This document shows positions 1,891 to 52,596 of a stretch of 64,000 bases of DNA, one piece after another. Source of the DNA: a virus; the IMG/VR virus record IMGVR_UViG_3300020576_007358, one strand, 5' to 3'. The translations under genes were made by a program, and so were the position numbers. How positions within the stretch are numbered: the stretch's first letter is position 1; the number at the start of each line of letters is the position of its first letter. Below the pieces are notes generated by a model that had not been told where the DNA came from, searched no databases, and was given only the letters and a program-made list of their open reading frames with translations.

Positions 1891-3552
1891 ATGGCCTACG
1901 ATCGTATCAAGTGTCCGAACTGTTCTCTTGATTTTGGGCAAGAGCTTCGTTTCCTAGATCATCTAACAGATGTGCATGGGATCACTGACCATGAACAACA
2001 TTACGTTGATGTTATTTTGAGTGGGATCAAACCGACATGTGGTTGTGGTTGCAACGAACACGTTAACTGGTCTAGTTGGAAGAAGGGTTACACGTCAAAG
2101 TTCAAACGTGGACACAATGCCGTTGTCGATTCCGTGTATCTAAATCCAGAGAAGCAAGTGGAATTTGCAAGGAAAAGACATGATGGTTATGCTAGTGGCC
2201 AGTACAGCACTTGGAACAAAGGCCTGACGAAAGAAACGTCTGAGAAAGTTGCGATAACTTCTCAGAAGATATCAACTTCCTTGAAAGAAGGATATAAGTC
2301 AGGAACGATCATTGATTGGCACAAAAAAGATCCTGCAGCGGCCGTCGCCGCAGCCACGAAAATCTCAAGCACAAAAAAGAAGAAATTTCAAACTGGTGAA
2401 CTGAACGTCTGGAACAAAGGTATGACTAAAGAATCAGATGAAAGAGTTGCATCAGTTTCAAACACAATAAAGCATCAAATTGAAGCGGGTCATGTTATTC
2501 CTTCAAAAAGATTGTCATCTGATGAATTTTTGTCATTGATTTCGAAACAAAAGACTTTTTCTTTGGTGTCTGATCCTTCAACATATAAAAACAAATATGT
2601 AAAATTTGACTTTAAGTGCAATACCTGCGGAAAAATATCAAAAAAGAACTTGATGATGATAAAGAGCGTTCCTGTTTGCTTTAACTGTCATCCTAAGGAA
2701 TCCAAAGCACAGATCGAAATATACGATTACGTTCGATCCTTGGCGCCTGATGCAGTGCTTTCTGATAGAACTGTAATCTCACCAAAAGAGATTGATGTGT
2801 TTGTTCCTTCGAAGAAGTTCGGAATTGAGTATGATGGTCTTTATTGGCACAGTGAAATTATCGATAGCGACAAGAAAAGAAGCCAAAAGAAGCATGATGC
2901 TGCATTGAATGTTGGAGTAAAGCTTCTTCACATATTTGAAGATGAATGGCGAGACAAGCAAGAACTTGTGAAATCAATGATAGCTTACAGGCTTGGAACA
3001 TCTTCAAAAGTAATTGGTGCACGTAAGTGTGAAGTGAAAGCACTTACAGTTCAACAAAGAAAGCAATTCATGAATGCTAATCACCTTGAAAATGATTGCA
3101 ATTCTTCTGCTTCGTGGGGATTGTTTTACAATGGTGAGCTTGTTTCCGCGCTATCACTTCGTCGACCTTTTCATGCACGTTATAGAGATGCATACGAAGT
3201 TGGCAGGTTCTGCAACCTGATGAACATAACCGTTCCAGGAGCTCTTTCTAAGTTGCTTAAAGTTGCTATAACGTGGGCGAAAAGCAAAGGTGCTGCTCGC
3301 CTGCTGTCTTACGTTGATCTTCGCATAGGGGATGGTTCTGGATACGAAAAAGCCGGCTTTAAGCTCATCTCCAGTTCAAGTCCAAGATTTTGGTGGACAG
3401 ACTACAAGAATCGCTTGAATCGTTTTGCTGTAAAAGCTGATGCATCTTCGGGTTTGACACAAATAGATGCAGCGAAGAACGCTGGCGTTGTAGCGATTTG
3501 GGGATGTGGTAATCAAATACTAGAGCTGAAAATTGAGGAGAAGAATGAATGA
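1891..3552 (+). CDS. Homing endonuclease-like protein of the Vsr-like family: zinc finger, WNKGLTKET repeats, a GIEYDGLYWHSE...HIFEDEW nuclease core, plus an unassigned C-terminal domain of about 190 aa.
   Basis: ORF track translation. Paralog of the minus-strand ORF at 1..1225. Confidence 0.6.
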   Translation: MAYDRIKCPNCSLDFGQELRFLDHLTDVHGITDHEQHYVDVILSGIKPTCGCGCNEHVNWSSWKKGYTSKFKRGHNAVVDSVYLNPEKQVEFARKRHDGYASGQYSTWNKGLTKETSEKVAITSQKISTSLKEGYKSGTIIDWHKKDPAAAVAAATKISSTKKKKFQTGELNVWNKGMTKESDERVASVSNTIKHQIEAGHVIPSKRLSSDEFLSLISKQKTFSLVSDPSTYKNKYVKFDFKCNTCGKISKKNLMMIKSVPVCFNCHPKESKAQIEIYDYVRSLAPDAVLSDRTVISPKEIDVFVPSKKFGIEYDGLYWHSEIIDSDKKRSQKKHDAALNVGVKLLHIFEDEWRDKQELVKSMIAYRLGTSSKVIGARKCEVKALTVQQRKQFMNANHLENDCNSSASWGLFYNGELVSALSLRRPFHARYRDAYEVGRFCNLMNITVPGALSKLLKVAITWAKSKGAARLLSYVDLRIGDGSGYEKAGFKLISSSSPRFWWTDYKNRLNRFAVKADASSGLTQIDAAKNAGVVAIWGCGNQILELKIEEKNE

Positions 3553-3842: not shown

Positions 3843-3865
3843 GTTGAACGTGTGCCACGTCTTTA

Positions 3866-3894
3866 TTTACGCTGCAAGTATTGCAAAGTAGAAT
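3866..3894 (+). promoter_or_regulatory. Weak sigma70-like promoter candidate (tttacg-17 bp-tagaat) upstream of ORF 3913.
   Basis: Hexamer match only; 4/6 and 5/6. Confidence 0.15.
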
Positions 3895-3912
3895 AAGACG
3901 AAGGAATAACAC

Positions 3913-4776
3913 ATGTCAGAAGATCGCGAAGTAAAGAACGAAATTTTTAGAGGCGCCGCTGTAGATCCACGAATTCCTACGACGACTGCTGCCGAAAAGG
4001 TGAAGGCGGATTTCGGTCTAGACATTCCAGTTGAAACAGTGCCCCTGCCCAGCGCCGGCCTGACGTACCCAACGTCATCACCTTTGCACGGCAAAGAGAC
4101 TGTTGATATCAAGTCGATGACGGCTCGGGAAGAGGATATTCTCACTAGCAAAGCTCTCTTGAAGAAGGGAACTGTGATCACTGAACTGATCAAGTCATGC
4201 CTTGTTGACAAGTCTGTCGATCCACGTGACATGTTGTCTGGTGACCGCAATGCGTTGATGGTCGCGATCAGAATCACTGGTTATGGCGCTGAGTACGATG
4301 CAGAGCTAGAGTGTCCGGAATGCGGCACGAAGGCTTCTCGCCAGTTTGATCTTTCTCGTCTTCCGATCAAGAGGTTGACGATCGAACCAGTCGTTCAAGG
4401 AACGAACTTGTTTGCATGCCTCCTACCAGTCAGCAGGAAGATGGTTCACTTCAAGTTCATCACCGGTAAGGATGAAGAAGACATGTCAGCAACTGCTGAG
4501 AAGCAGAAGAAGCTTGGTCTTGCGTCTGATGCAACTGTCACCAGCAACTTGCTGTACTCTATCGTCTCGATTGATGGCATCGATGATCGTTCCAAGATCG
4601 CAGGGTTTGTCAGGTCAATGCCAGCACGAGATTCCTTGACGCTTCGTAATTACATCAAGGATCACGAGCCAGGCATTGAGATGAGGCAAGAAACTTCTTG
4701 CCCTTCATGCGATCACGAAGAGGAGGTACAGATGCCGCTAGGCGTCAACTTTCTTTGGCCTTCGGCCGGAAGATAA
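3913..4776 (+). CDS. Hypothetical tail-module protein with two CxxC motifs (CPECG, CPSCD).
   Basis: ORF track. Lies between the tail tube and tape-measure genes. Confidence 0.4.
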   Translation: MSEDREVKNEIFRGAAVDPRIPTTTAAEKVKADFGLDIPVETVPLPSAGLTYPTSSPLHGKETVDIKSMTAREEDILTSKALLKKGTVITELIKSCLVDKSVDPRDMLSGDRNALMVAIRITGYGAEYDAELECPECGTKASRQFDLSRLPIKRLTIEPVVQGTNLFACLLPVSRKMVHFKFITGKDEEDMSATAEKQKKLGLASDATVTSNLLYSIVSIDGIDDRSKIAGFVRSMPARDSLTLRNYIKDHEPGIEMRQETSCPSCDHEEEVQMPLGVNFLWPSAGR

Positions 4777-17254: not shown

Positions 17255-18475
17255 TTGTTCAATCTTATGTCAGAGCCATTTTGTATCGATGCGAAGCTGA
17301 TGGGTACTGAGCGCCATCTGCACGTTGATGATGGTTACAAGTGGGTGGAAGAAATCCCGACAGCTGCTTGGCACTTGTCAGGCGAACTTAAACATTCGTC
17401 GAACAGGTGTCTAGACACCGTTATGAAGCTAAATTCAAAAGAAGCAGATCTTTTGCCTCATGAGAAGTACTTGAAGATGATGCAAGTCGTAGCACCAGAT
17501 CATGGACCTCAACAGCTTCCATGGGTTCACCTGATGACGAGCAAAGAACACAGGAGCTACGTCAGAAAACTGATTAATGAAGCGGTGGATACCATAGACA
17601 ACTATTCGAAAGATTATTACGTGTCAACGTGGGTCAACGAGACAGCAGTATTGGATGCTTTGAAACCAGCCATGGTGTCTAGAAAAAGGTATGCCGAGCT
17701 CAAGGCAACTGTGAAGAATAACGTTCACACCATTGAAAGCTTTGAACCAAATCTGTCTGGGTACGCAGCACCAGTGCTTTACGATCGACTTGCTACGCGC
17801 ACTGGCCGCTTGACAGTGAAATCAGGTCCACAGATCTTGACGTTGAAGAGAGAGCACAGGGACTTGGTAGTTCCTTCTACGCCCAACGGTAAGATCATGT
17901 ACGTTGATTTTGCTGCGCTGGAAGCTAGAGTTCTTCTCTACGAGGCTGGTGGTCAGTGTTCAGACGTAGATCTTTACAGGATGATAGCAAGAGACTTGTT
18001 TGGCGACACTGTGTCTAGAGATGCTGTGAAGCTAGCTGTCATCTCTGAGTTGTACGGTTCTGGGAAGCACACGCTTGGAGAGACGTTGCAGATATCTGGT
18101 GATCCTCTCGATAGATTCATAGCAAAGATCAAGGGATTCTTCAAGACGAACGATCTAAAAGCAAGGGTGAAGGATCAGTATGTGAAGCTAGGTTACATAC
18201 GAAACAGGCACGGTCGCATGGTGAAGATCGATGAGCCAATCGACAGGATCTTTGTAAATTCGTACGCGCAATCAACTGGCGTTGATGTTAGCCTCCTTGG
18301 ATTCAACGAGCTGCTGAAGGGTCTTAAGCACACGAAGTGCCGCCCGCTGTTCGTTCTTCACGATGCTCTCATCATAGATGTTCCGGAAGAATCAGTTGAC
18401 GAAGTGATGCAGATCGAATCTGTAAAAGTTCCTGGTTACGTTCAAAACTTTAAGCTAAAGGTTCAGATGATGTGA
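17255..18475 (+). CDS. Family A (Pol I-like) DNA polymerase, polymerase domain only (406 aa, no exonuclease domains).
   Basis: Motif A YVDFAALEARVL, motif B RDAVKLAVISELYGSG, motif C VLHDALIIDV. Confidence 0.55.
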   Translation: MFNLMSEPFCIDAKLMGTERHLHVDDGYKWVEEIPTAAWHLSGELKHSSNRCLDTVMKLNSKEADLLPHEKYLKMMQVVAPDHGPQQLPWVHLMTSKEHRSYVRKLINEAVDTIDNYSKDYYVSTWVNETAVLDALKPAMVSRKRYAELKATVKNNVHTIESFEPNLSGYAAPVLYDRLATRTGRLTVKSGPQILTLKREHRDLVVPSTPNGKIMYVDFAALEARVLLYEAGGQCSDVDLYRMIARDLFGDTVSRDAVKLAVISELYGSGKHTLGETLQISGDPLDRFIAKIKGFFKTNDLKARVKDQYVKLGYIRNRHGRMVKIDEPIDRIFVNSYAQSTGVDVSLLGFNELLKGLKHTKCRPLFVLHDALIIDVPEESVDEVMQIESVKVPGYVQNFKLKVQMM

Positions 18476-25368: not shown

Positions 25369-26458
25369 TAAATTCAAGTGTCAATATTGTTGTCAGCAAT
25401 ACAACAATCAATCTGGGTTGATCACGCATATTCGACGCAAGCATTCAACAACATTCACAGATTACAAGTTGAAATTTTCTCATCTTTACAAAGTTGAAAA
25501 AAGAGAAAAAAAACTTAGTCTAAATGAACTAGCTAGACGTAAACGTGATGAAAAAGCTATTGATGATGGACTTCAAGTTTTGAAGTGTGAAATTTGCAAT
25601 TATGAATCTTACTACAGTTTGATATCGCACATCGTAAGAAAACACGGTGTGGCTATGAATGAATATCGATCAAATTTCCCTTCAGCAGTTGTACAGCAAG
25701 TTACATCAGATGTCAGAGAAAAAAATAGAAAGAATGCAACGTTGCATCTTTCAGATCCTATCAAGAAAGCGAATTTTCTAAAACGAAGATCTTTTCCTTC
25801 TGAGATGAAACACTGGATCAATAAGGGATTTTCATCAGACGAAGCAAAGAAAAAAGTTGCTGAATTTCAACAAGCGATTGCGCTTAAAGGTAATAATGAA
25901 AAAACGAAGGCAAAACAGTCAATTAGAAATTCTGGTCAAAATAACCCAATGTCATTGACATCAATTTCGAAACGTCTTAACGTTTCGAAGGATGACGCAA
26001 GCAAATTGACACCGTGTTATGGAAGATCAGGCATCAAACATCCGATGTTTGGTAAAAAACACAGTATTGAAGCTTTGAACAAAATTGGTCAACACATTAA
26101 TCACACCGGACGTTCGAAAATCGAACACGAAATGTCTGATCTGATCATTTCATTGTATGGTGGTCTAAAGAACGTAGGAGTAAATGGTTGGTGCTGTGAT
26201 TACGTTAATCACGATCGTCAGATTATAGTTGAATTTTTTGGTGATTATTGGCATCACAATCCGGAAAAATATGATAGAAATTTTGTCAACAACTTTACTA
26301 AACGTTCATCTGAAGAAGTTTGGTTGCGTGATGCACGCAAATTGAATGAACTTAGAGAGAGCGGCTTTAACGTTGTTGTGATATGGGAATCTGATTGGCG
26401 AAACAAAAAAGAAGACAGTTTGAACAGGATAAAAGATGCTTTCAATAGAACATTGTGA
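25355..26458 (+). CDS. Free-standing homing endonuclease (C2H2 zinc fingers, Vsr-like core EFFGDYWH...VVIWESDW) between the helicase pieces.
   Basis: ORF 25274..26458. ATG 25355 (MNLSDKFKCQYC) overlaps the intein-N stop. Confidence 0.55.
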   Translation: MNLSDKFKCQYCCQQYNNQSGLITHIRRKHSTTFTDYKLKFSHLYKVEKREKKLSLNELARRKRDEKAIDDGLQVLKCEICNYESYYSLISHIVRKHGVAMNEYRSNFPSAVVQQVTSDVREKNRKNATLHLSDPIKKANFLKRRSFPSEMKHWINKGFSSDEAKKKVAEFQQAIALKGNNEKTKAKQSIRNSGQNNPMSLTSISKRLNVSKDDASKLTPCYGRSGIKHPMFGKKHSIEALNKIGQHINHTGRSKIEHEMSDLIISLYGGLKNVGVNGWCCDYVNHDRQIIVEFFGDYWHHNPEKYDRNFVNNFTKRSSEEVWLRDARKLNELRESGFNVVVIWESDWRNKKEDSLNRIKDAFNRTL

Positions 26459-27677
26459 AGTTGTTGAAGTTGTTAAAGTTGGTGATCTGTTTGCTAGCAT
26501 TGGATTTAATGATGATTCAGTTGCTGATGATTCTGGTGATTCATTTATTCCGAATGAATGGTCAATAGAAGTCAGATCACTTGACACTTTCTATCCTGTA
26601 GATGGTTTTCGTTGGACAAAACCAGAGCAGCAGGTGAAATTGACATATGGCAAAGAATCTTCTTTGCAGTGTTCACCAGAACACATTGTTTTGAAGTATT
26701 CTTCTACAGAAACTCAATGGACAAAAGTTAGTGATCTATCGCCTGGTGATGACATTGTCACTGTTAATGGCATATGCATGATTGATTCGATTGATAATCT
26801 AGAGGAACTTGATCGTCTTTGCGACCTTCAAGTATCAATTGCACATTCTTACTATGCTGACGGTGTGTTGTCACATAATTCTCACTTTCTTACGTTCTTG
26901 GGTGCAATGGCGCTGAGGAACAACGTTGATGTTCTTCACTACACGTTTGAGCTATCAGAGACTCAAGTTGGTATCAGGTATGATTCTAACTTGTGTGACA
27001 TTGATTCGAATGCTGTCATTGACAGCAAGGATCGTATTCTTACTAAGTACGCAGAGCAAAAGCTGGGACGCTTGATCATCAAGTACTTTCCGACGAACAC
27101 AGCTAGCATCTACACGCTTCGAAGTCACATCGAGCGCCTCGGAACGAAGGGTTTCAGGCCAGGATTGATTATCATCGACTATGCTGACATCATGAGATCA
27201 ACTCGTCAGTTCGATTCTTTGAGACACGAGCTTAAGCTCGTTTACGAAGAACTAAGAGGAATGGCTGGTGAGCTAGGAATCCCAGTGTGGACAGCGAGCC
27301 AGAGCAACAAAGAGGGAGCGACAAGCGAGATCATCGACATGGGAAACATGTCTGAAGCTTACGGCAAAGCGATGATCGCTGACGTGATCGTCAGCATCTC
27401 TAGGCGTGCTCACGAGAAGTCAACGGGTCAAGGTCGATTGTACGTTGCAAAGAATCGCGCCGGGCGCGATGGTCTTGTTTATCCGTTGCACATTGACACC
27501 TCAAAGAGCAACTTTGAGATCTTGGGTGGACCGGGTTCTTTGGACGTCGCCATGAAGGAGAACGAATCTGACATCAAGAAAGTTCTTCGTTCAAAGTGGA
27601 ACGAGATGAGAAATGATCCAATCATCGGCGAAAATCTAAAAAGAGGAAGCGATTCTAGCGATGACACGGGTTCTTGA
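26436..27677 (+). CDS. Intein C-part (about 148 aa with blocks B, F, G; ...VLSHN) fused to the helicase C-terminal piece (SHFLTFLGAMAL...).
   Basis: HN|S junction at 26880. Helicase motifs follow downstream (IIDYADIM, SQSNKEG, RAGRDG). Confidence 0.6.
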   Translation: MLSIEHCEVVEVVKVGDLFASIGFNDDSVADDSGDSFIPNEWSIEVRSLDTFYPVDGFRWTKPEQQVKLTYGKESSLQCSPEHIVLKYSSTETQWTKVSDLSPGDDIVTVNGICMIDSIDNLEELDRLCDLQVSIAHSYYADGVLSHNSHFLTFLGAMALRNNVDVLHYTFELSETQVGIRYDSNLCDIDSNAVIDSKDRILTKYAEQKLGRLIIKYFPTNTASIYTLRSHIERLGTKGFRPGLIIIDYADIMRSTRQFDSLRHELKLVYEELRGMAGELGIPVWTASQSNKEGATSEIIDMGNMSEAYGKAMIADVIVSISRRAHEKSTGQGRLYVAKNRAGRDGLVYPLHIDTSKSNFEILGGPGSLDVAMKENESDIKKVLRSKWNEMRNDPIIGENLKRGSDSSDDTGS

Positions 27678-27737: not shown

Positions 27738-30700
27738 ATGAAGACATTTACGTACCAAGAAGCTCGTGATGCATCGGTTGACTATTTTTCTGGTGACACT
27801 CTAGCTGCTGATGTTTTTGTGTCCAAATATGCGTTGCGTGATTCAAATGATCAAGTTCTAGAGAGCACACCAGAAGCCATGCATCGTCGCTTGGCGAAGG
27901 AGTTCGCTAGGATAGAGTTGAACTACAAAAACTCTATTTCGTTCGAAGAGATCATGGAGTATTTCAGCTCTTGGAAGATCGTGCCTCAAGGATCGCCGAT
28001 GTCTGCGATTGGAAACACGAAGCAGATCCAGTCTCTGTCAAATTGCTTTGTCATTGAATCGCCGTACGATTCTTACGGCGGAATCATGAAGACCGACCAA
28101 GAGCAAGCTCAGATCATGAAGCGCCGCGGCGGTGTTGGATTCGACATCTCGTCAATCAGACCAAAGGGATTGGTCACAACTAACGCTGCTCGTACGACCG
28201 ATGGCATCGGTGTTTTCATGGAGCGCTTCAGCAACACTTGCAGGGAAGTTGCGCAAGGCGGTCGCCGTGGTGCTTTGATGATGACAATCTCTGTTCATCA
28301 CCCAGAGATTCGCACGTTCATCAACATCAAGAAGAACGTTGAAAAAGTTACAGGCGCAAACATCTCGATCAGGTTGACTGATGAGTTCATGCGAGCAGTG
28401 AAGGCTGGCGAGAAGTTCCAGCTAAGGTTCCCAGTTGAAGCAAATGCACAGCATACGATCAAAGAAGATGTCGACGCTGGTGAACTGTGGAGTGAGATCA
28501 TTGAGGCTGCTCATGCGTCAGCTGAACCCGGCTTGCTATTTTGGGACAACGTTGTTAATAATGGTCCAGCAGATGCATATCCCGGCTTCAAGTCTATCTC
28601 TACGAATCCCTGCTCTGAGATCGCTCTTTGCGCTTACGATTCGTGCAGATTGCTGCTTCTCAACGTTTCAAAGTTCGTAGAGAATCCTTTCACTGACAGA
28701 GCAAATTTCAACATCAAAGAGTTCAAGAGAGCTGCGTACGTTGCTCAACGCTTGATGGACGACTTGGTTGATCTTGAGCTCGAAGCCGTCGATAGGATCA
28801 TCGACAAGATCAACTCAGATCCAGAACCAGACGACGTAAAGAAGAACGAGCTAGATCTTTGGTTGAAGATCAGGGAAAAAGGTGCCTCGGGCCGTCGCAC
28901 TGGTTTGGGAATCACTGGTCTTGGTGATGCCATTGCGTACGTTGGGTTGAAGTACGGATCAAGGGAATCTATCGATTTTACGGAAGATCTGTATAGAATG
29001 TTGGCTCTTTCTGCGTACCGTTCGTCAGTTGACATGGCGGCAGAACGTGGAGCATTTCCTGCGTTTTCTCACAACGTTGAAGCTGGTCATCCGTTCATTG
29101 AAAAGATCTTGGCACATGATGATGAGCTCAAGGCTGCATACAAGGTTCACGGTCGTCGTAACATTGCCTTGACAACAACTGCGCCCGCTGGATCAGTTTC
29201 AATCCTGACTCAAACAACGTCTGGTTGCGAACCTGTTTTTGCAGTTAGCTACAAGCGCAAGAAGAAGATCAATTCGAACGACGTCACGACCACTGCCAAC
29301 TTTGTTGATGATCTTGGAGATCGTTGGCAAGAGTATACTGTCTACCATCATGGATTGAAGATGTGGATGGATGTGACTGGAAAGACAGAGGCTGATATTG
29401 ATGAATCGCCTTACAAGGGTTCTTCTAGCTCTGAGATCGATTGGCATGCTCGTGTTGACCTTCAAGCCGCAGCCCAAAGATGGATCTGCCATGCAATTTC
29501 CAGCACTGTCAACTTGCCATCAGATACGTCAGTTGAGACAGTTAAAAACATCTACATGCGAGGTTGGGAATCTGGGTGCAAGGGAATCACAGTGTATCGT
29601 GATGGTTGCAGAGCAGGCGTTCTATCGACAGAAGAGAAAAAGCCAAGTATTCAAGGAGCGTCGACCGATGGCTTGAAAGCCCTTCTTGACATTGTAACTA
29701 AGAACGCTGGTAGCATTCCATCAGCTGATTTGTACAAAAAATTGATTGAAGAAGAGCTCACGAGGAGAGAGCCGACTCAACCAGAAAAGGTCGTCGAAGT
29801 TCATGCACCAAAGCGTCCAAAGGAGCTAGAGTGTGATATCCATCGAGTCAACATCAAAGGTGAACAGTATCTTGTCTTCGTCGGATTGCTGAACGGTGTT
29901 CCATACGAAGTCTTTGCTGGTCTGTCAGAACACGTTGAAGTGCCAAAGAAGGTTAAGAAGGGAATCTTGATCAAGAATGGCAAGAAAGACGGTGTTGCAA
30001 CGTACAACCTGAAGATTCCTGTAGGAGATGATGATTTTGTGACGTTCAAAGACGTTGTTAACTTGTTTGACAACCCAACTTACGGTTCGTTCACCAGAAC
30101 GTTGTCTCTAACGTTGAGGCATGGCATCCCGCTTCAGTACATCGTAGAGCAGCTTCGCAAAGACAAGCACAGCGACATGATGTCATTTTCAACTGTCATT
30201 GCTAGGGTCTTGAGCAAGGGTTACATCGTCGATGGAACGAAAGCAACTCAAGAAAAGCAGTGCTCAAGTTGCGGTTCTGATCAGCTAGCGTACATGGAAG
30301 GTTGCCAGACGTGCATGAACTGTGGAAGTAGCAAGTGTTCCTTATACTTAACTCCAAGACGAAAGGTTGATGACGTGAAAATCAAGATCACACCGCAGAT
30401 GCTGAGGCAGCTTGTTAACGAAGAAGTTCTGAACGTGAAGCGCAAGGGAACTTTGAAGGAAGCCTTTGGACCATATGATGCCACTGGCGAGTATGATGAT
30501 AAGGAATACGGCATGCAACCGTGGAACTTTGAAGAGTCACACAGGGAACTGTTTGCTCAGGCGCTTGAACCAGTCATCAATGAGTTCATGGAGTCTTTGG
30601 CCGAGATCGTTGAAAGAGCTTCGCCACCAGATGCTAACATGTCTGCGCAAGATATTGGTAGCGATGAATACAACAGCTTCGGTGAAGACCTCAAAGAAGA

Positions 30701-31118
30701 TCTTTTGAAGGTCATTGCTCAACACATGAAGAATGCGTCTGAAAATTTTGGTCTTTTAGAGGTTAACGTCATGAAGATAAAGCTAAGTGATCTGCGAAAG
30801 ATCATCAGAGAAGTTGCAGTTTCACCTGCTGTCTTCAAGAGCAGCCAACCTGCAAAAGATCCGATGGAGAAGAAGAACATTGTCAAAGCGGTCTCTGATT
30901 TGAAGACAGCGTTCGAATCAGCGCTTCTAAGCAACCTTGTTCTTGCGAACCCAGAGAAGTACGATGAATCCTCGAGAGAATTTGATGATCAGATGTACGA
31001 ATCTCTTAAGACAACAGCGGCCTCAGCATCTGAACAAGTAGCATCAAAGATCAATGATGCAGTTCAGACTGCATGGGTTGCTGCACACAAAAACTCTAAG
31101 GTAAATCACTTAAAGTGA
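27738..31118 (+). CDS. Ribonucleotide reductase, probably class II monomeric NrdJ-like, with a C-terminal zinc ribbon and an additional C-terminal extension of about 250 aa.
   Basis: NPCSEIAL active-site motif. Zinc ribbon CSSCGSDQ...CQTCMNCG. The extension carries two copies of the MKIKLSDLRKII-like peptide. Confidence 0.65.
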   Translation: MKTFTYQEARDASVDYFSGDTLAADVFVSKYALRDSNDQVLESTPEAMHRRLAKEFARIELNYKNSISFEEIMEYFSSWKIVPQGSPMSAIGNTKQIQSLSNCFVIESPYDSYGGIMKTDQEQAQIMKRRGGVGFDISSIRPKGLVTTNAARTTDGIGVFMERFSNTCREVAQGGRRGALMMTISVHHPEIRTFINIKKNVEKVTGANISIRLTDEFMRAVKAGEKFQLRFPVEANAQHTIKEDVDAGELWSEIIEAAHASAEPGLLFWDNVVNNGPADAYPGFKSISTNPCSEIALCAYDSCRLLLLNVSKFVENPFTDRANFNIKEFKRAAYVAQRLMDDLVDLELEAVDRIIDKINSDPEPDDVKKNELDLWLKIREKGASGRRTGLGITGLGDAIAYVGLKYGSRESIDFTEDLYRMLALSAYRSSVDMAAERGAFPAFSHNVEAGHPFIEKILAHDDELKAAYKVHGRRNIALTTTAPAGSVSILTQTTSGCEPVFAVSYKRKKKINSNDVTTTANFVDDLGDRWQEYTVYHHGLKMWMDVTGKTEADIDESPYKGSSSSEIDWHARVDLQAAAQRWICHAISSTVNLPSDTSVETVKNIYMRGWESGCKGITVYRDGCRAGVLSTEEKKPSIQGASTDGLKALLDIVTKNAGSIPSADLYKKLIEEELTRREPTQPEKVVEVHAPKRPKELECDIHRVNIKGEQYLVFVGLLNGVPYEVFAGLSEHVEVPKKVKKGILIKNGKKDGVATYNLKIPVGDDDFVTFKDVVNLFDNPTYGSFTRTLSLTLRHGIPLQYIVEQLRKDKHSDMMSFSTVIARVLSKGYIVDGTKATQEKQCSSCGSDQLAYMEGCQTCMNCGSSKCSLYLTPRRKVDDVKIKITPQMLRQLVNEEVLNVKRKGTLKEAFGPYDATGEYDDKEYGMQPWNFEESHRELFAQALEPVINEFMESLAEIVERASPPDANMSAQDIGSDEYNSFGEDLKEDLLKVIAQHMKNASENFGLLEVNVMKIKLSDLRKIIREVAVSPAVFKSSQPAKDPMEKKNIVKAVSDLKTAFESALLSNLVLANPEKYDESSREFDDQMYESLKTTAASASEQVASKINDAVQTAWVAAHKNSKVNHLK

Positions 31119-48036: not shown

Positions 48037-49047
48037 ATGTCGAAGAAAGTTCTGATCACGGGTATCGCTGGTTTTCTTGGTTCGCATCTTGCGTTGCATC
48101 ACATCGCAGCCGGTGATGAGGTGATCGGTCTGGATGATTTCTCTTCGTCGAAGAGAGATTCTCTTCATCTTGCTACGATCAAGCGCCTCATGGCAGAGAA
48201 GAAGTTGGGGGAAGTCTATGAGTGCGACATTGCAGAGCAGAAGCAGGTTCATTACTGCTTGCAGAAGCACGCAATGAAAAAGTCACCAGCGGGAATTGAT
48301 CTGATCTATAACTTCGCTTGCCCTGCTTCACCGCCTCGATACCAACAGATTCCAACGAAGACGATGATGACATGCGTGGCCGGAACTAACAACATCATCG
48401 ACGTTGCTATGTGTAACAATTCTGTAGTTGTGCACGCCTCAACGTCTGAAGTGTACGGCGATCCGGATATCACTCCTCAAGTTGAATCTTATAGGGGTTG
48501 CGTGAACCCTTACGGTCCCCGAGCATGCTACGATGAAGGCAAGCGCGCAGCAGAAGCGTTGTGCTACGATTCTCTTTTCAAGTACGGCGTAGACGTACGT
48601 CTCGTTAGAATATTCAACACGTATGGCCCTCATCTTGATGTAACAGACGGACGTGTAGTTTCAAACTTTATAACTCAAGCCTTGTACAACAAAGATATCA
48701 CAATCTATGGTGATGGTTCTCAAACAAGGTCATTTTGTTACGTAGATGATCTGATACGTGGAATTGTTTCTTTGGGAGCCTTGAGCTACAATCCAAAAAC
48801 GCCCATTAATTTGGGAAATCCAAATGAGTTTACCATTAAAGAACTTGCAGATGTTGTTATGTCTTTGATTCCAAGTAGCAAATCAAAATTTGTATGGCAG
48901 TCCATACCTATTGATGATCCACTTCAGAGAAAACCAGATATTACTATAGCGAAAGAAATTCTTAAATGGCAACCGAGTGTGCAATTGCTGGAAGGTCTTC
49001 AGAAGACGATACACTACATTCAGAACGTGAATGTGCAATTTACGTGA
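48037..49047 (+). CDS. NAD-dependent epimerase/dehydratase (UDP-glucuronate decarboxylase / UXS-like).
   Basis: GIAGFLGSHL Rossmann motif and YDEGKRAAE catalytic YxxxK. Confidence 0.6.
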   Translation: MSKKVLITGIAGFLGSHLALHHIAAGDEVIGLDDFSSSKRDSLHLATIKRLMAEKKLGEVYECDIAEQKQVHYCLQKHAMKKSPAGIDLIYNFACPASPPRYQQIPTKTMMTCVAGTNNIIDVAMCNNSVVVHASTSEVYGDPDITPQVESYRGCVNPYGPRACYDEGKRAAEALCYDSLFKYGVDVRLVRIFNTYGPHLDVTDGRVVSNFITQALYNKDITIYGDGSQTRSFCYVDDLIRGIVSLGALSYNPKTPINLGNPNEFTIKELADVVMSLIPSSKSKFVWQSIPIDDPLQRKPDITIAKEILKWQPSVQLLEGLQKTIHYIQNVNVQFT

Positions 49048-49694
49048 TCACTAACAATGTTAATAACAAACGATATGTTGGGAAATCTGTTCAGCCAACT
49101 AGACGTTGGCTTGGGCACAAATCTTATGCCCGACGTGGTGATCTAAGAAGATTGTATTGTTCGATGCGAAAACATGGCGTTGAACAGTTCAAATTTGAAA
49201 TATTGACGTGGTGTGATAGTGAAGACGCTGCTTTTCTTGAAGAAAAAAGAATAGTAACTGAGTGGAATCTATGTGATCCACGTGTAGGTTATAACTTGAC
49301 TAGTGGTGGTCGTGGTGGATGTAGAGTGTCAGATCAAGTACGTCATAGAATGAAATTGCGTGAACCTTCAATGAAGGGTCGTAAACACACTGAAGAAACA
49401 AAGCGTCTATTGTCAATAGCTAGCTCTGGTGCTAATAATGCAAATTTTGGTAAACATAAAAGTGATGAAACTAAGCAAAAAATGAGTGATTCACAAAAAG
49501 GTCGTAAATTTACTGATGATCATCGTGAAAAGCTACGCCAGGCGAAGCTTGGAAAAAAGACAGGACGTAGTATACCACCAGAAATGGCTATAGCAAGAAG
49601 AAATATGAAAGGAACTATCGAGGCAAAAGAAGCTGCTAAATTGGGTTGGATAACACGTCGTGCCAAAATTAATGATGATACTGTAAATCAGTAA
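49044..49694 (+). CDS. GIY-YIG homing endonuclease with NUMOD3 repeats.
   Basis: VITNNVNNKRYVGKS, R..H, YNLTSGG. GTG 49044 overlaps the epimerase stop. ORF track 48966..49694. Confidence 0.55.
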   Translation: MITNNVNNKRYVGKSVQPTRRWLGHKSYARRGDLRRLYCSMRKHGVEQFKFEILTWCDSEDAAFLEEKRIVTEWNLCDPRVGYNLTSGGRGGCRVSDQVRHRMKLREPSMKGRKHTEETKRLLSIASSGANNANFGKHKSDETKQKMSDSQKGRKFTDDHREKLRQAKLGKKTGRSIPPEMAIARRNMKGTIEAKEAAKLGWITRRAKINDDTVNQ

Positions 49695-49771
49695 ATTTAT
49701 CGACATTTAACGAAAACTTAGTGTGAACTTGCGCTGTCACGAGCCTTACAATGTAAGGTAAGACGAATTAC

Positions 49772-49822
49772 ATGACACCGAAACGATTTGTTGGTCTTCA
49801 TAATCACACGTGCTTTTCTTAG
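49772..49822 (+). pseudogene. Orphan copy of the dnaE 5' end (MTPKRFVGLHNHTCFS then TAG).
   Basis: 17 codons homologous, with synonymous differences, to 50676..50720, which is the true dnaE start region. Confidence 0.4.
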
Positions 49823-49860
49823 TGGCTCCTATGGATTATTAGGTGGTCATCTAAATTAAA

Positions 49861-50622
49861 GTGAAGTATATTCATGGTGTTGAAGCCATGAAATCAAGAG
49901 AAAAAGTTTGTGACTGGTGCCATAATCCTTTTATTGATAAATCAAAAGGTAATTGGTGCCGCACATGTTCAAAAAACTGTCGTAATCAACTTCGAACGCA
50001 AAATATGAGAAAAGGTGGCGCATTTGAATGGGATGAAGAACGACGTAAGAAAATTGGTGAAATAACCAAACAGAATCTACTTTCAGGAAAAGTAGAAAAT
50101 CCGTGGTCTCGTAATGAGGTCAAAGAAAAAATTCGTCAGACGAACCTTAAAAAGTTTGGTGTTTCGAACTGGAGACAGACGAAAGAGGGTCGTGAAAGAA
50201 CTATTACGTTCAATAAGAAACGAATTCGTTCGCGAGAAGAACGTCGAAAACATAGTGATAATGCTCGAAAACAAATGAAAGGTGGTCTCAAATCACGAGG
50301 AAAGGCCGGGAAGCGAGATGATCTTCCTGGATTTTATCGCAGTTCATGGGAGGCAAATTACGCACGAATTCTTATCCACCAGGGAAAATCTTGGCTATAT
50401 GAACCGAAAACGTTCGAGCTCGCAAGTGGGATTTCTTACACGCCAGATTTCTATGTTGATGGTTGTTTCATTGAAATCAAAGGCTGGATGGATGATCGGT
50501 CGAAACGTCAACTCGACGAATTTACAATTGAGTATCCAAACGAGAGGTTGCAAATTGTTGGTCCGAAGGAATATTATAGCCTTCGACAACAATACGCGTC
50601 ATTGATTAAGGAATGGGAATGA
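49861..50622 (+). CDS. Homing endonuclease-like protein (zinc finger, basic repeats, PD-(D/E)xK core YTPDFYVDGCFIEIKG).
   Basis: ORF track. Sits between the two dnaE 5' copies. Confidence 0.5.
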   Translation: MKYIHGVEAMKSREKVCDWCHNPFIDKSKGNWCRTCSKNCRNQLRTQNMRKGGAFEWDEERRKKIGEITKQNLLSGKVENPWSRNEVKEKIRQTNLKKFGVSNWRQTKEGRERTITFNKKRIRSREERRKHSDNARKQMKGGLKSRGKAGKRDDLPGFYRSSWEANYARILIHQGKSWLYEPKTFELASGISYTPDFYVDGCFIEIKGWMDDRSKRQLDEFTIEYPNERLQIVGPKEYYSLRQQYASLIKEWE

Positions 50623-50732
50623 AAATTAACGATTCAAACAACAGAAAGGAGGTATCCCTAGAAAACTCTGTGCGCACTCCGAAGCGATTTGTTGGTTTGC
50701 ATAATCACACAGGGTTTTCGTAGGGGATTTAA

Positions 50733-51620
50733 TCACCCTTTGACGGCCTCGGATACCCGAACGAACATTTCGATTTTTGTCGTGAGAATGGTCTTGATGC
50801 TCACGCAATTACTGAGCACGGTAACATGAACAGTTACGCTCATGCTCAACTCGCAGTTGAAGATTGGAATAAAGCAAACCCAAAACTTCCTTTCAAGTAC
50901 ATTCCGGGTTGTGAAATGTACTTTCACCCAAGCTTGAAGCAGTGGGAAGTTGACAAGCTTCGTGCTGAAGAAGCCCTGGTCGATAAGAAAGCAGCAGCGA
51001 AGCTCCTGAAGGAGCAGGAAAAGCTGCAGACAAAGATCATTGCTGTCGTCGATGAAGCGGATGAAACCGAAGACATCGAGATGACCAATGCTCTGACAGT
51101 TGAAAATGAAGACGAGTCAAAGTCAACGAAGCACTTCAATCCCGTCAACCGTCGTCATCACCTTGTTGTTCTGCCAAAGAACCAGCAGGGCTTGCTGTCC
51201 ATTTTCTCTGCGTGCTCGAAAGCGTACATGCAGGGTTTTTACAGATTCCCTCGCATCGACTTGGAGATGCTGAAGGAAGCAGGAAAAGATCGTAACATCG
51301 TTGTCACTTCTGCATGCATTCATCCAGATTCAATTGTGATCACCAATTGTGGTTCAATGAAGATTGTTAATCTAGTTGAACATGTAAAAAATGGCACTGA
51401 AATTTCGGTGTTGTCATATGATCATGACACAAACCAACTTGTTTTTAAGAAAGTTACTTGGGCTGATAAAACAAGAGAACAAGCAAAAATTGTTCGAATT
51501 AAGCTTAAAAATGGTGCAACATTGCGGGTAACGCCTGATCACAAAGTCTATACTAAACGTGGTTGGGTAGAAGCACAAGAACTTCTGAAAACAGATCATA
51601 TACTGTCAATCCACCAATAG
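50733..51620 (+). CDS. dnaE: DnaE (Pol III alpha) PHP-domain N-terminal piece followed by an intein N-half (CIHPDSIVIT...TPDHKVYT, starts 51315) and a stop. The upstream in-frame start region at 50619/50670..50720 is separated from it by TAG (50721) and TAA (50730).
   Basis: SPFDGLGYPNEHF...AITEHGN...GCEMY PHP motifs. Intein blocks A and B. ORF track 50826..51620. Confidence 0.55.
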   Translation, partial: SPFDGLGYPNEHFDFCRENGLDAHAITEHGNMNSYAHAQLAVEDWNKANPKLPFKYIPGCEMYFHPSLKQWEVDKLRAEEALVDKKAAAKLLKEQEKLQTKIIAVVDEADETEDIEMTNALTVENEDESKSTKHFNPVNRRHHLVVLPKNQQGLLSIFSACSKAYMQGFYRFPRIDLEMLKEAGKDRNIVVTSACIHPDSIVITNCGSMKIVNLVEHVKNGTEISVLSYDHDTNQLVFKKVTWADKTREQAKIVRIKLKNGATLRVTPDHKVYTKRGWVEAQELLKTDHILSIHQ

Positions 51621-51636
51621 TTATTGGTGGACAACT

Positions 51637-52596
51637 ATGAGAAAATTTGATTCTAAAAAGAAAGCACTAGCTCGTCAAGAATTTCTTGACTCTCTAACTC
51701 ATGTAGGTCTGACGACGGTTGAATTGAAGCGCCTGGCATCAGACCTACATTATAGTTTGTCTATGATTTATGATCTAATTGTGAGAGATCACAATGATAT
51801 TGTTACACGTTTTCGTTTTTCAAAACGATCAATTGTAAATCTGTTTCATAAACTAGGCATAGTTCATAACAATAAACTTTACTTGAGATTGCCTCAAGAA
51901 GTTAAGTTGCAGTTCAAATATCCTAAGGGAACTTCTCTTGAAGAGATAAAAAAGATCTGTTCACAACAATCTTCAAAAGGTGCTAAGACTACTCATCGTA
52001 TTAGAAAGGCATGGGATGCATACACGCCCAAAAATAATACTGAATATTATCTCAATAAAGGATATTCTCTTGACGAAGCAAATGTTAAATCGTCAGCCTT
52101 TCGAAAAAGTAAGTCTCCATTCTCAAGATCATTTTCGAACTATCAACAGCTTGCTGCTGATGACGTTCTAGAACTAATTCGTGAACTCTCAAGAAATAGA
52201 GGGCTTAAAGGGCTTGTTAGTATGCGTGCTCGCAATTCGAAACTCGAATTGCGAGTTGTATCTGAATTGCTAAACAAAGATATTCATTGTGAAACACAGA
52301 AAATTTTGGGCAAATTTGCATATGATGTTTTTGTACCAAGATTCAATCTGATCATTGAAGTAAATGGAACGTACTGGCACGCAGATCCACGCGTTTATAA
52401 CGCTGATGATCTAATTCAATTTCCGTACGGGCAAGTTAAGGCAAGTGAAAAATGGTCAAAAGATGAGATAAAGTTGGCTTATGCCAGATCAATTGGCTAT
52501 AATGTTTGTGTGTTGTGGGAAGCGGACTTGAAAAAAGAAGGTTACCTTGACGAATTCATCAAATCAATCAATGACAGCTATGCAGATGACAACTGA
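51637..52596 (+). CDS. Free-standing homing endonuclease (Vsr-like core IIEVNGTYWH...VCVLWEADL) between the dnaE pieces.
   Basis: ORF track. Confidence 0.55.
   Translation: MRKFDSKKKALARQEFLDSLTHVGLTTVELKRLASDLHYSLSMIYDLIVRDHNDIVTRFRFSKRSIVNLFHKLGIVHNNKLYLRLPQEVKLQFKYPKGTSLEEIKKICSQQSSKGAKTTHRIRKAWDAYTPKNNTEYYLNKGYSLDEANVKSSAFRKSKSPFSRSFSNYQQLAADDVLELIRELSRNRGLKGLVSMRARNSKLELRVVSELLNKDIHCETQKILGKFAYDVFVPRFNLIIEVNGTYWHADPRVYNADDLIQFPYGQVKASEKWSKDEIKLAYARSIGYNVCVLWEADLKKEGYLDEFIKSINDSYADDN

Follow-up and report, generated by a model that had tools for sequence, protein, structure and literature searches.

In the IMG/VR virus record IMGVR_UViG_3300020576_007358, of which we analyzed a stretch of 64,000 nucleotides (nt; hereafter the window), the 5′ end of dnaE is broken by a short insert that begins and ends with a stop codon. 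It falls precisely at the junction of the Ser and Pro codons in the invariant PHP motif HNHTGFS/PFDG. We propose, with a probability of roughly 0.78, that a mobile homing-endonuclease cassette occupies the dnaE 5′ end and that its short insert is crossed by a Ser-to-Ser hop of the peptidyl-tRNA. All results are based on sequence comparison of uncultured phage contigs, and this comparison confirms that the interruption is real, through its anatomy, its recurrence in other dnaE alleles (Table 1), the rules obeyed by its codons and composition, a covarying hairpin and the linkage to an endonuclease gene. The allele called "window" in the counts below is the dnaE of the window.

The initial annotation had reported two copies of the dnaE N-terminus, differing mostly at synonymous positions, on either side of an open reading frame (ORF) at 49861..50622, and the positions of both copies were confirmed (Table 2). 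They are identical at 40 of 48 nt, differ by 5 synonymous codons and 1 non-synonymous one (Cys/Gly), and give a local alignment score of 57, the maximum among 300 shuffles being 26; a repeat search also reports the pair, as a 51-nt direct repeat with 82% identity. Copy 1, termed the stub, is a gapless-type dnaE start cut exactly at the Ser-Pro junction, and its length of 16 codons from ATG to Ser fits that of the gapless alleles (median 17). The ATG proposed for the interrupted gene, at 50619, indeed overlaps the stop codon of the endonuclease ORF (TGA). Both copies are followed by TAG as had been claimed, and the order after copy 2 is TAG (50721-23), GGG ATT, TAA (50730-32), TCA (50733-35) and CCC TTT GAC GGC, which continues in the PHP frame. 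From ATG 50619, this frame translates into MKINDSNNRKEVSLENSVRTPKRFVGLHNHTGFS, a stop, GI, a second stop and SPFDGLGYPNEH.

We call the Ser codon before the insert the take-off codon, and the triplet that directly precedes the next conserved codon the landing codon. In the window, the gap between them places a stop in the A site at take-off, has a second stop abutting the landing codon, holds zero C and includes AGGGG 6 nt 5′ of the landing codon. Relative to the uninterrupted ...HNHTGFS-PFDG... of relatives, exactly 15 nt are extra. The ORF downstream of the gap matches the Pfam PHP and intein domains and is 73-75% identical to its relatives. Between 50733 and 50826 there is no in-frame ATG, GTG or TTG, so that the conserved PHP sequence from 50736 is unreachable by ordinary initiation.

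A protein-guided scan of IMG/VR yielded 7 related dnaE 5′ ends, 6 of them uninterrupted; the seventh, L004, carries a 7-nt insert at the same junction (TCG-TAATGCG-CCC) together with a remnant of the same upstream ORF. Alleles were then collected from IMG/VR, a metagenome collection and the window by means of DNA patterns of the form "...H-x-H-x-G-F-Ser codon + stop", and each combination of take-off, gap and landing was counted once. This gave 23 distinct alleles, the window included. The comparison with homologous phages suggested by the initial annotation thus returned the same anatomy in 22 further distinct dnaE alleles, with differing gap sequences and lengths. In IMG/VR, roughly one in four members of this dnaE family has the gap (21 loci vs 60 gapless under matched patterns). 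A blastn search for close cultured relatives among 50,697 phage records gave no match, tblastn for DnaE retrieved only distant actinophage and Bacillus-phage DnaE, and the motif-plus-stop pattern had 0 matches in 185,579 species-representative bacterial and archaeal genomes.

Table 1 Take-off, gap and landing sequences of 11 of the 23 gap-bearing dnaE alleles.
Allele	Take-off	Gap	Landing	Next codon
Window	UCG	UAGGGGAUUUAA	UCA	CCC
L009	UCG	UAGUGA	UCU	CCC
L011	UCG	UGAAGACACUUAA	UCU	CCU
L018	UCC	UAGUUGAA	UCU	CCA
L022	UCU	UGAAGUGGG	UCU	CCA
L030	UCC	UGAUGAAGUAGA	UCC	CCA
L037	UCG	UAG	UCG	ACU
L035	UCA	UAAUAA	UCU	ACA
L045	UCG	UAAUAAUA	UCA	GUA
L034	UCC	UAAUGGA	ACC	AUU
L049	UCG	UA	ACG	ACC

The 23 alleles obey a common set of rules. 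A stop codon stands directly 3′ of the Ser codon in every one of them, with UAA, UAG and UGA all in use and often two stops per gap. Take-off and landing are separated by 5-16 nt (gaps of 2-13 nt), a distance that is in frame in 11 alleles, +1 in 8 and +2 in 4; since 12 of the 23 gaps are therefore out of frame, readthrough is not a general solution, and the canonical motif is restored only by taking the insert out. The take-off Ser codon is always UCN (TCG 10, TCC 9, TCT 3, TCA 1), whereas AGY Ser codons, found in 18 of 58 gapless alleles, are absent from all 23 (p = 0.002). The landing triplet is UCN in 17 alleles; the other 6 have NCG or NCC there, in agreement with the take-off codon at its last two bases. 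Take-offs at UCG are associated with a landing third base of A, G or U but never C, and those at UCC with C or U but never A or G (Fisher p = 0.0008). Third-base reading of this kind follows from the standard bacterial wobble rules for UGA/CGA and GGA anticodons, and the third bases agree with decoding of both codons by one tRNA-Ser isoacceptor.

The gap sequences are also non-random. Past the obligatory stop, they contain 2 C in 90 nt as compared to a background of 21.5% (binomial p = 1e-7), and this depletion makes the landing codon the first xCx triplet after take-off in all alleles but L011. Ahead of the stops, the residues F, G, H, H, G, F and S are invariant in the 23 alleles while all 11 third positions vary, indicating that the pre-stop segment is under protein-level selection. 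Taken as a set, these rules are the signatures expected of a peptidyl-tRNA that would leave its codon, scan and re-pair at the first cognate triplet.

An N-terminal extension and a covarying hairpin

All 22 gap-bearing alleles in which it could be tested carry an N-terminal extension, with 27-36 codons from the ATG to the take-off codon vs a median of 17 in 55 gapless alleles. Folding places the RNA of this extension antisense to CAC-ACN-GGN-UUY-UCN and, in many alleles, also to the gap and the landing codon; e.g., in L011 the gap GAAGACAC pairs with GUGUCUUC of the extension. The inner stem of the window comprises 12 base pairs (bp), 50661-50672 with 50708-50719, and a 106-nt segment around it folds with −32.3 kcal/mol (z = −3.36), a stability reached by 0 of 200 shuffles.

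A MAFFT alignment of the whole hairpin misplaces the outer stem, as neither the gap nor its complement has a constant length; we therefore relied on a duplex test with cognate and non-cognate arms and counted pairs on the gap-free inner stem only. This count was limited to a subset of 13 alleles, since the loop length varies between subfamilies in the mixed alignment of 22. Cognate arms pair with −28.1 ± 5.0 kcal/mol (22 alleles) vs −18.9 kcal/mol for non-cognate ones (permutation p ≤ 1e-5). The same geometry in gapless alleles (n = 58) gives −8.9 ± 2.9 kcal/mol, with no overlap between the distributions (Mann-Whitney p = 6e-12): the hairpin is absent from the 58 gapless relatives. In the gap-free alignment of 13 alleles, 89% of the inner-stem cells are paired, a value that falls to 33-62% when the partner is shifted by 1-3 columns, and the covariation score is 0.344 as compared to 0.215 ± 0.022 after shuffling (reached by 0 of 500 shuffles). 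The covarying pairs face the third positions of Thr/Ser, Gly and Phe codons, where the changes are synonymous, showing that the extension tracks silent changes in the coding arm. In the T4 gene 60 cassette, the N-terminal extension carries a nascent-peptide signal. The extension peptides of the dnaE alleles differ between subfamilies (..ENSV.., ..EKPV..), and their sequence is largely dictated by complementarity to the take-off region.

A second feature of the extension is the tetranucleotide GGAG, which is nearly universal 4-9 nt 5′ of the hairpin 5′ arm (50648-50651 in the window; AAGGAGG in its close relatives). It is kept at the nucleotide level although synonymous alternatives and other residues would be possible there, and at the gap-bearing loci no start codon is found at a usable distance 3′ of it. 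In some alleles GGAG pairs with a CUCC at the landing site, while in many it has no obvious partner. A long-range pairing between AAGGAGG and the landing CUCC was considered and rejected: it holds in L009, L011, L018 and L022, close relatives of the window, but fails across the wider family, in which GGAG is still conserved.

The endonuclease gene and a probable origin of the duplication

The ORF between the two copies is a free-standing homing-endonuclease gene. Its product combines an N-terminal Cys4 region, helical repeats and a C-terminal PD-(D/E)xK nuclease that is T7-endonuclease-I-like. It matches endonuclease and Holliday-junction-resolvase families in PHROG, and it is 32-36% identical to the endonucleases of L009, L011 and L018. 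A profile built from four members finds T7 endonuclease I among the PDB entries (1m0d, E = 4.5e-5), three of the four members match Pfam Phage_endo_I, and the nuclease motif SYTPDFYV...E(I/L)KG is invariant among the endonucleases (SYTPDFYV...EIKG in the window). With tblastn, matches of the window endonuclease in cultured phages are confined to the nuclease domain.

The enzyme is tightly linked to the gap. Of the 23 gap-bearing alleles, 17 have a homolog immediately upstream of dnaE, vs 1 of 60 gapless ones (Fisher p = 8e-12). These 17 comprise 13 full-length genes and 4 C-terminal remnants, and other alleles keep only the last few codons, ...WEGK and the stop. In L004, L030, L048, L022 and L017 the endonuclease has decayed and the gap has been kept.

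Two gapless loci deserve separate mention. The sole gapless allele with this endonuclease upstream is L002/L075 (IMGVR_UViG_3300006056_000068; L002 3265-3989), where the endonuclease gene is frameshifted and split over two overlapping frames; the dnaE of this locus has AGC as its Ser codon and carries neither the N-terminal extension nor the hairpin. In L003 (~3850-4000), a different endonuclease, with a C-terminus that appears by eye to be endonuclease VII / HNH-like, lies directly upstream of a gapless dnaE, which suggests that, as a hotspot, the dnaE 5′ end attracts endonucleases of several families.

The duplication may be explained by the way in which the cassette would have arrived. It would have entered at, or adjacent to, the site that the enzyme presumably cuts, with homologous recombination on the right side only, and so displaced the resident dnaE 5′ end, much as in T4, where mobA divides the topoisomerase gene and supplies a homologous replacement segment. 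On this view, copy 1 would be the resident 5′ end, displaced by a cassette that brought its own replacement, and copy 2 would belong to the cassette. Most gap-bearing alleles are without copy 1. An independent second stub is present in L045 (4466-4522, minus strand), where MSLLIPPPKKFVGFHGHTG-TAA is followed by the endonuclease and then by a cassette copy with its gap; this stub ends two codons earlier than that of the window.

Upstream of the window stub lies what appears to be a relic of an antisense arm (Table 2). Read in the stub frame, the relic gives ..NENLV and a stop, similar to the ENSVR of the live N-terminal extension, and its fold pairs GAAAA with UUUUC and GUGUGA with UCACAC. The hairpin around the stub was not significant (z = −0.26 for the region). 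After the relic, a 48-nt in-frame segment (within 49710-49771) contains a small hairpin (CCUUACAAUGUAAGG) and supplies the ATG of the stub. Tentatively, the resident end may itself be an older cassette that has decayed and acquired a start site anew.

Table 2 Coordinates of the features at the dnaE locus of the window.
Feature	Position	Strand	Remarks
Relic antisense arm	49710..49726	+	ACGAAAACTTAGTGTGA; complementary to TCACAC..TTTTC(G/T); found as inverted repeat
Stub (copy 1)	49772..49822	+	ATG 49772 to TCT 49819, then TAG 49820-22; 16 codons, MTPKRFVGLHNHTCFS
Cassette left end and endonuclease 5′ leader	49823..49860	+	Approximate boundary; moderate similarity to the stub-endonuclease spacer of L045
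Free-standing homing-endonuclease gene	49861..50622	+	Start GTG 49861 or ATG 49888; ORF
dnaE start and cassette-specific N-terminal extension	50619..50675	+	MKINDSNNRKEVSLENSVR; ATG overlaps the endonuclease TGA
Hairpin 5′ arm	50645..50672	+	AAAGGAGGUAUCCCUAGAAAACUCUGUG; inner stem 50661-50672; RNAfold, duplex
Copy 2 (homologous dnaE 5′ end of the cassette)	50676..50720	+	TPKRFVGLHNHTGFS; last codon is the take-off TCG, 50718-50720
Hairpin 3′ arm	50708..50741	+	CACAGGGUUUUCG-UAGGGGAUUUAA-UCA-CCCUUU; inner stem 50708-50719; embeds take-off, gap and landing
Gap, 12 nt, predicted to be untranslated	50721..50732	+	TAG GGG ATT TAA; compared with 22 other gaps
Landing codon TCA	50733..50735	+	First UCN and first C-containing triplet after take-off; next codon CCC 50736
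Rest of DnaE N-extein (PHP domain)	50736..51314	+	PFDGLGYPNEH...ITEHGNM...; ends at the split intein
Intein N half	51315-51620
Endonuclease gene between intein halves	51637-52596
Intein C half	up to 52705
C-extein	from 52706		Starts at a Cys codon

The proposed hop, its alternatives and known bypass systems

We infer the hop itself, a role for the hairpin and an immunity function from the patterns described above. The cassette would comprise, in order, the stop closing the stub, the endonuclease gene, the dnaE start with its extension, a dnaE copy of about 15 codons and the 12-nt insert. With peptidyl-tRNA-Ser on UCG 50718 and UAG in the A site, the tRNA would unpair, the ribosome would slide over 15 nt, and the tRNA would re-pair with the first cognate triplet, UCA 50733. 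Decoding would then resume at CCC 50736 and yield a single DnaE chain, ...HNHTGFS-PFDG...; the predicted junction peptide is FVGLHNHTGFSPFDGLGYPNEHFDFCR, with a single Ser. The insert probably splits the recognition site of the endonuclease and would thereby render the carrier genome immune to its own enzyme. The presumed target is the gapless, stub-type sequence ...CACACGTGCTTTTCT/CCCTTTGACGG..., which would be cut near the Ser-Pro junction.

The hairpin could assist the hop from behind. At take-off the arm formed by the extension would lie outside the ribosome, where it could pair with the mRNA emerging at the exit channel, favoring forward movement and blocking back-sliding; more speculatively, each nucleotide of forward movement would allow one more pair at the exit. 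With 12-14 bp, the stem is comparable in length to the longest hops (16 nt).

Several points weigh against this interpretation. In 6 of the 23 alleles, only two of the three bases of the landing codon agree with the take-off codon. Owing to the shared descent of the alleles, the counts are not fully independent, and the p-values given above overstate independence. The window hairpin is among the less perfect ones, with internal loops and a z of about −1.4 in a wider frame. As the 3′ arm of the stem (−10..+1) would be inside the ribosome at take-off, zippering could not start the slide, and it can add little for hops of 5-6 nt; the gaps, in turn, are too short to allow a take-off stem-loop within the gap as in gene 60. 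The complementarity of the arms might be maintained by DNA-level correction of a quasi-palindrome instead of RNA selection, and the hairpin may serve another purpose, e.g. translation control or RNA processing.

Of the other explanations, the one that survives best, although we regard it as improbable, is a DnaE that is made in two pieces or truncated at its N-terminus. The UAG would then end a peptide of ~34 residues, either trans-complementing or dispensable, and the rest would arise from non-canonical initiation or reinitiation near the landing site. Homing endonucleases are known from a review to split genes into pieces that reassemble, as for T4 genes 39/60 and Aeh1 nrdA, and the near-universal GGAG 5′ of the stem would sit near the landing region in the folded RNA. 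However, in addition to the lack of an in-frame ATG, GTG or TTG at 50733-50826, which led us to reject reinitiation, no allele shows a conserved start-like codon at or after the landing site. The break would moreover fall within the HxH...DG metal-binding motif, and two separate pieces would leave the tRNA-compatible take-off/landing pairs and the C-depleted gaps unexplained.

Removal of the insert from the RNA before translation, by processing or editing guided by the hairpin, is very unlikely. The insert is embedded in a conserved, covarying hairpin, which speaks for such a process, but it is base-paired in the fold and not bulged, and the stop-codon and matched-codon rules implicate the ribosome. 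Inserts of 2-13 nt are far smaller than any known self-splicing element, and we know of no bacterial or phage mechanism for precise short RNA deletion. Rfam gave no match, group I and II introns included, at gathering thresholds, at E ≤ 1 for the whole window or at E ≤ 10 for 49600-50900, and ARAGORN found no tRNA in the 64-kb window; together these searches leave neither a suppressor tRNA nor a recognizable self-splicing intron. A group I or II intron joining copy 1 to the PHP domain was also rejected on the basis of the negative Rfam result, the lack of a G giving an in-frame 3′ splice site, and the lack of copy 1 in most alleles.

Slightly less credible still is a mixture of conventional recoding events, in which the in-frame alleles would be decoded by readthrough of both stops, perhaps with a suppressor tRNA, and the out-of-frame ones by +1 or −1 frameshifting. 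The 15-nt insert of the window is in frame, and a +1 shift at UCG-UAA-U could in principle decode L004. Against this, the initial annotation had pointed to a nearby tRNA-like element, "beta", with a CUA anticodon, which neither ARAGORN nor Rfam, even at E ≤ 1, reproduced in the window. The use of all three stops, often two per gap, and the out-of-frame gaps contradict the readthrough option of that annotation and led us to discard suppressor tRNAs and stop reassignment, and frameshifting is ruled out by gap lengths and stop-codon usage. Mixed recoding would insert 1-5 residues, in a number differing by allele, inside an invariant motif; no slippery sequence is present, and one mechanism, the hop, covers all 23 alleles. 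Finally, stops inside an essential gene next to an endonuclease that presumably cuts the site could suggest a dead dnaE, either a pseudogene (an option of the initial annotation), left by imprecise repair of endonuclease cuts, or an assembly artefact, but this is the least probable explanation of all, given 23 distinct alleles from independent assemblies, coding sequence that is intact and conserved at the protein level on both sides of the gap, and a gap composition and codon rules that repair scars would not yield.

As interpreted here, the dnaE cassette works like the T4 mobA/gene 60 cassette, to which it is analogous, not homologous. The initial annotation had seen the likeness to that system in the layout of Ser, UAG, 12-nt gap and Ser; the 22 further alleles, the endonuclease linkage and the covarying hairpin all support it, with bypassing as the inferred outcome. 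Both cassettes are borne by a homing endonuclease. Each extends the N-terminus, brings a homologous copy to replace the target sequence, and places a non-coding gap where a metal-binding motif has invariant residues. In both, a stop directly follows the take-off codon, one tRNA can read take-off and landing codons, and premature landing triplets are depleted in the gap; the endonuclease decays while the gap persists, and insertion can leave part of the upstream gene as a stub. Comparable codon and gap signatures have been described for gene 60-type cassettes (Manning & Atkins preprint, 10.1101/2022.08.31.505936), and loss of mobA with retention of the gap is also known (10.1101/2022.08.31.505936). 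The block of self-cleavage by the mobA/gene 60 gap was shown experimentally (cited in Manning & Atkins, 10.1101/2022.08.31.505936). mRNA zippering at the exit channel was proposed for the 5′ stem-loop of gene 60 (PMC5009743; 10.1101/2024.12.09.627546).

There are also differences. The endonuclease is T7-endonuclease-I-like, with its PD-(D/E)xK nuclease and Cys4 region, in place of the HNH enzyme MobA of T4; the target is the PHP domain of dnaE instead of the Toprim domain of a topoisomerase; and the tRNA would be tRNA-Ser, not tRNA-Gly or tRNA-Asp as in gene 60-type cassettes. The gaps have 2-13 nt vs ~50 nt in gene 60 and lack its in-gap take-off stem-loop, the RNA element being a long-range hairpin between the N-terminal extension and the take-off/gap/landing segment. 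Gene 60 has a mini Shine-Dalgarno sequence ~6 nt ahead of its landing codon. The AGGGG of the window, with a 6-nt spacer, resembles it, but most other gaps contain nothing comparable. The survey of Manning & Atkins lists cassettes in topoisomerase genes only (10.1101/2022.08.31.505936), and full-text literature searches found no prior description of a bypass cassette in dnaE.

Other systems offer further parallels. In synthetic Escherichia coli stop-hops (Weiss et al. 1987, reviewed in PMC5009743), a stop lies between matched codons, and re-pairing occurs a few nucleotides downstream, as proposed here, and L037/L046 (UCG UAG UCG) and L017 (UCC UAA UGG UCC) have exactly this form. The synthetic cases were engineered or low-level, whereas the dnaE alleles are conserved in an essential gene with a dedicated RNA structure; a natural in-frame stop-hop was not known to a 2016 recoding review (PMC5009743). 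In the terminase gene of Streptomyces phage phiHau3 (PMC10732093), a growth-essential phage gene likewise contains non-coding inserts, of ~7 nt, and a predicted structure moves the landing codon nearer. Short-gap bypassing in this terminase is backed by mass spectrometry (PMC10732093); it differs in having a rare UUA as its trigger instead of a stop, in lacking an endonuclease cassette and in its proposed regulatory role. The byp elements of Magnusiomyces capitatus mitochondria are likewise mobile and non-coding, and interrupt essential genes; translation jumps across them and tolerates imperfect take-off/landing matches, but they have 27-55 nt, reside in a mitochondrial genome and are without an endonuclease. 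The window sequence AGGG-UUU-UCG-UAG also resembles the +1 site of prfB (RF2), where a Shine-Dalgarno-like G-run lies 3 nt 5′ of the P-site codon, which is itself followed by a stop. In prfB, however, the slip is by one nucleotide onto an overlapping codon, and the resemblance may be incidental because gapless alleles have the G-run of the window as well, in the form of the invariant Gly codon.

Taking these comparisons together, we lean toward the view that the dnaE cassettes represent a second, evolutionarily independent family of phage bypass elements and the first natural stop-hops, in which a T7-endonuclease-I-like enzyme would protect itself through a PHP-motif insert of 2-13 nt, and an antisense extension, perhaps tethered by GGAG near the mRNA exit, would zip up behind the ribosome and drive the Ser-to-Ser hop. 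Efficient programmed bypassing in bacteria and phages has so far been known almost solely from T4 gene 60 and its homologs, and the dnaE cassettes would widen the phenomenon; natural short stop-hops had been foreseen from the synthetic constructs. The 23 natural variants in hop length (5-16 nt), frame, stop, codon pair and hairpin strength form a ready experimental series, which could probe ribosome release, sliding and landing as well as exit-channel mRNA pairing as a forward driver. More generally, an untranslatable insert in a conserved coding target, combined with a ribosome hop, may be a recurrent route to self-immunity for homing endonucleases. A practical consequence is that gap-bearing dnaE genes will be labelled as truncated or as pseudogenes in annotations.

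Neighboring genes and other mobile elements

The dnaE of the window is fractured a second time, by a split intein at ...VVTSA/CIGG... with a free-standing endonuclease gene between its halves (Table 2). The C-terminus of the product of this gene matches PHROG endonuclease families. Such an arrangement of a split intein and a free-standing endonuclease was described as a "fractured gene" (Dassa et al. 2009, PMC2677866). In L004, the split-intein site is uninterrupted and other inteins are located further downstream.

Directly upstream of the stub, at 48966-49694, lies a GIY-YIG/NUMOD3 homing-endonuclease gene, which overlaps the 3′ end of a sugar-nucleotide epimerase/dehydratase-like gene (48037-49047). 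In L004, L017 and L022, the sugar gene directly adjoins the dnaE cassette. Elsewhere, the window is rich in signs of mobile elements (1891-3552, 27738-31118, 26436-27677 and 17255-18475); among them are a homing-endonuclease-like ORF of 553 amino acids (aa), an unusually long ribonucleotide reductase large subunit (1126 aa), an ORF for a DnaB-like helicase and, separately, one of 406 aa whose match to a DNA polymerase family is only partial. The window may contain further inteins or split genes.

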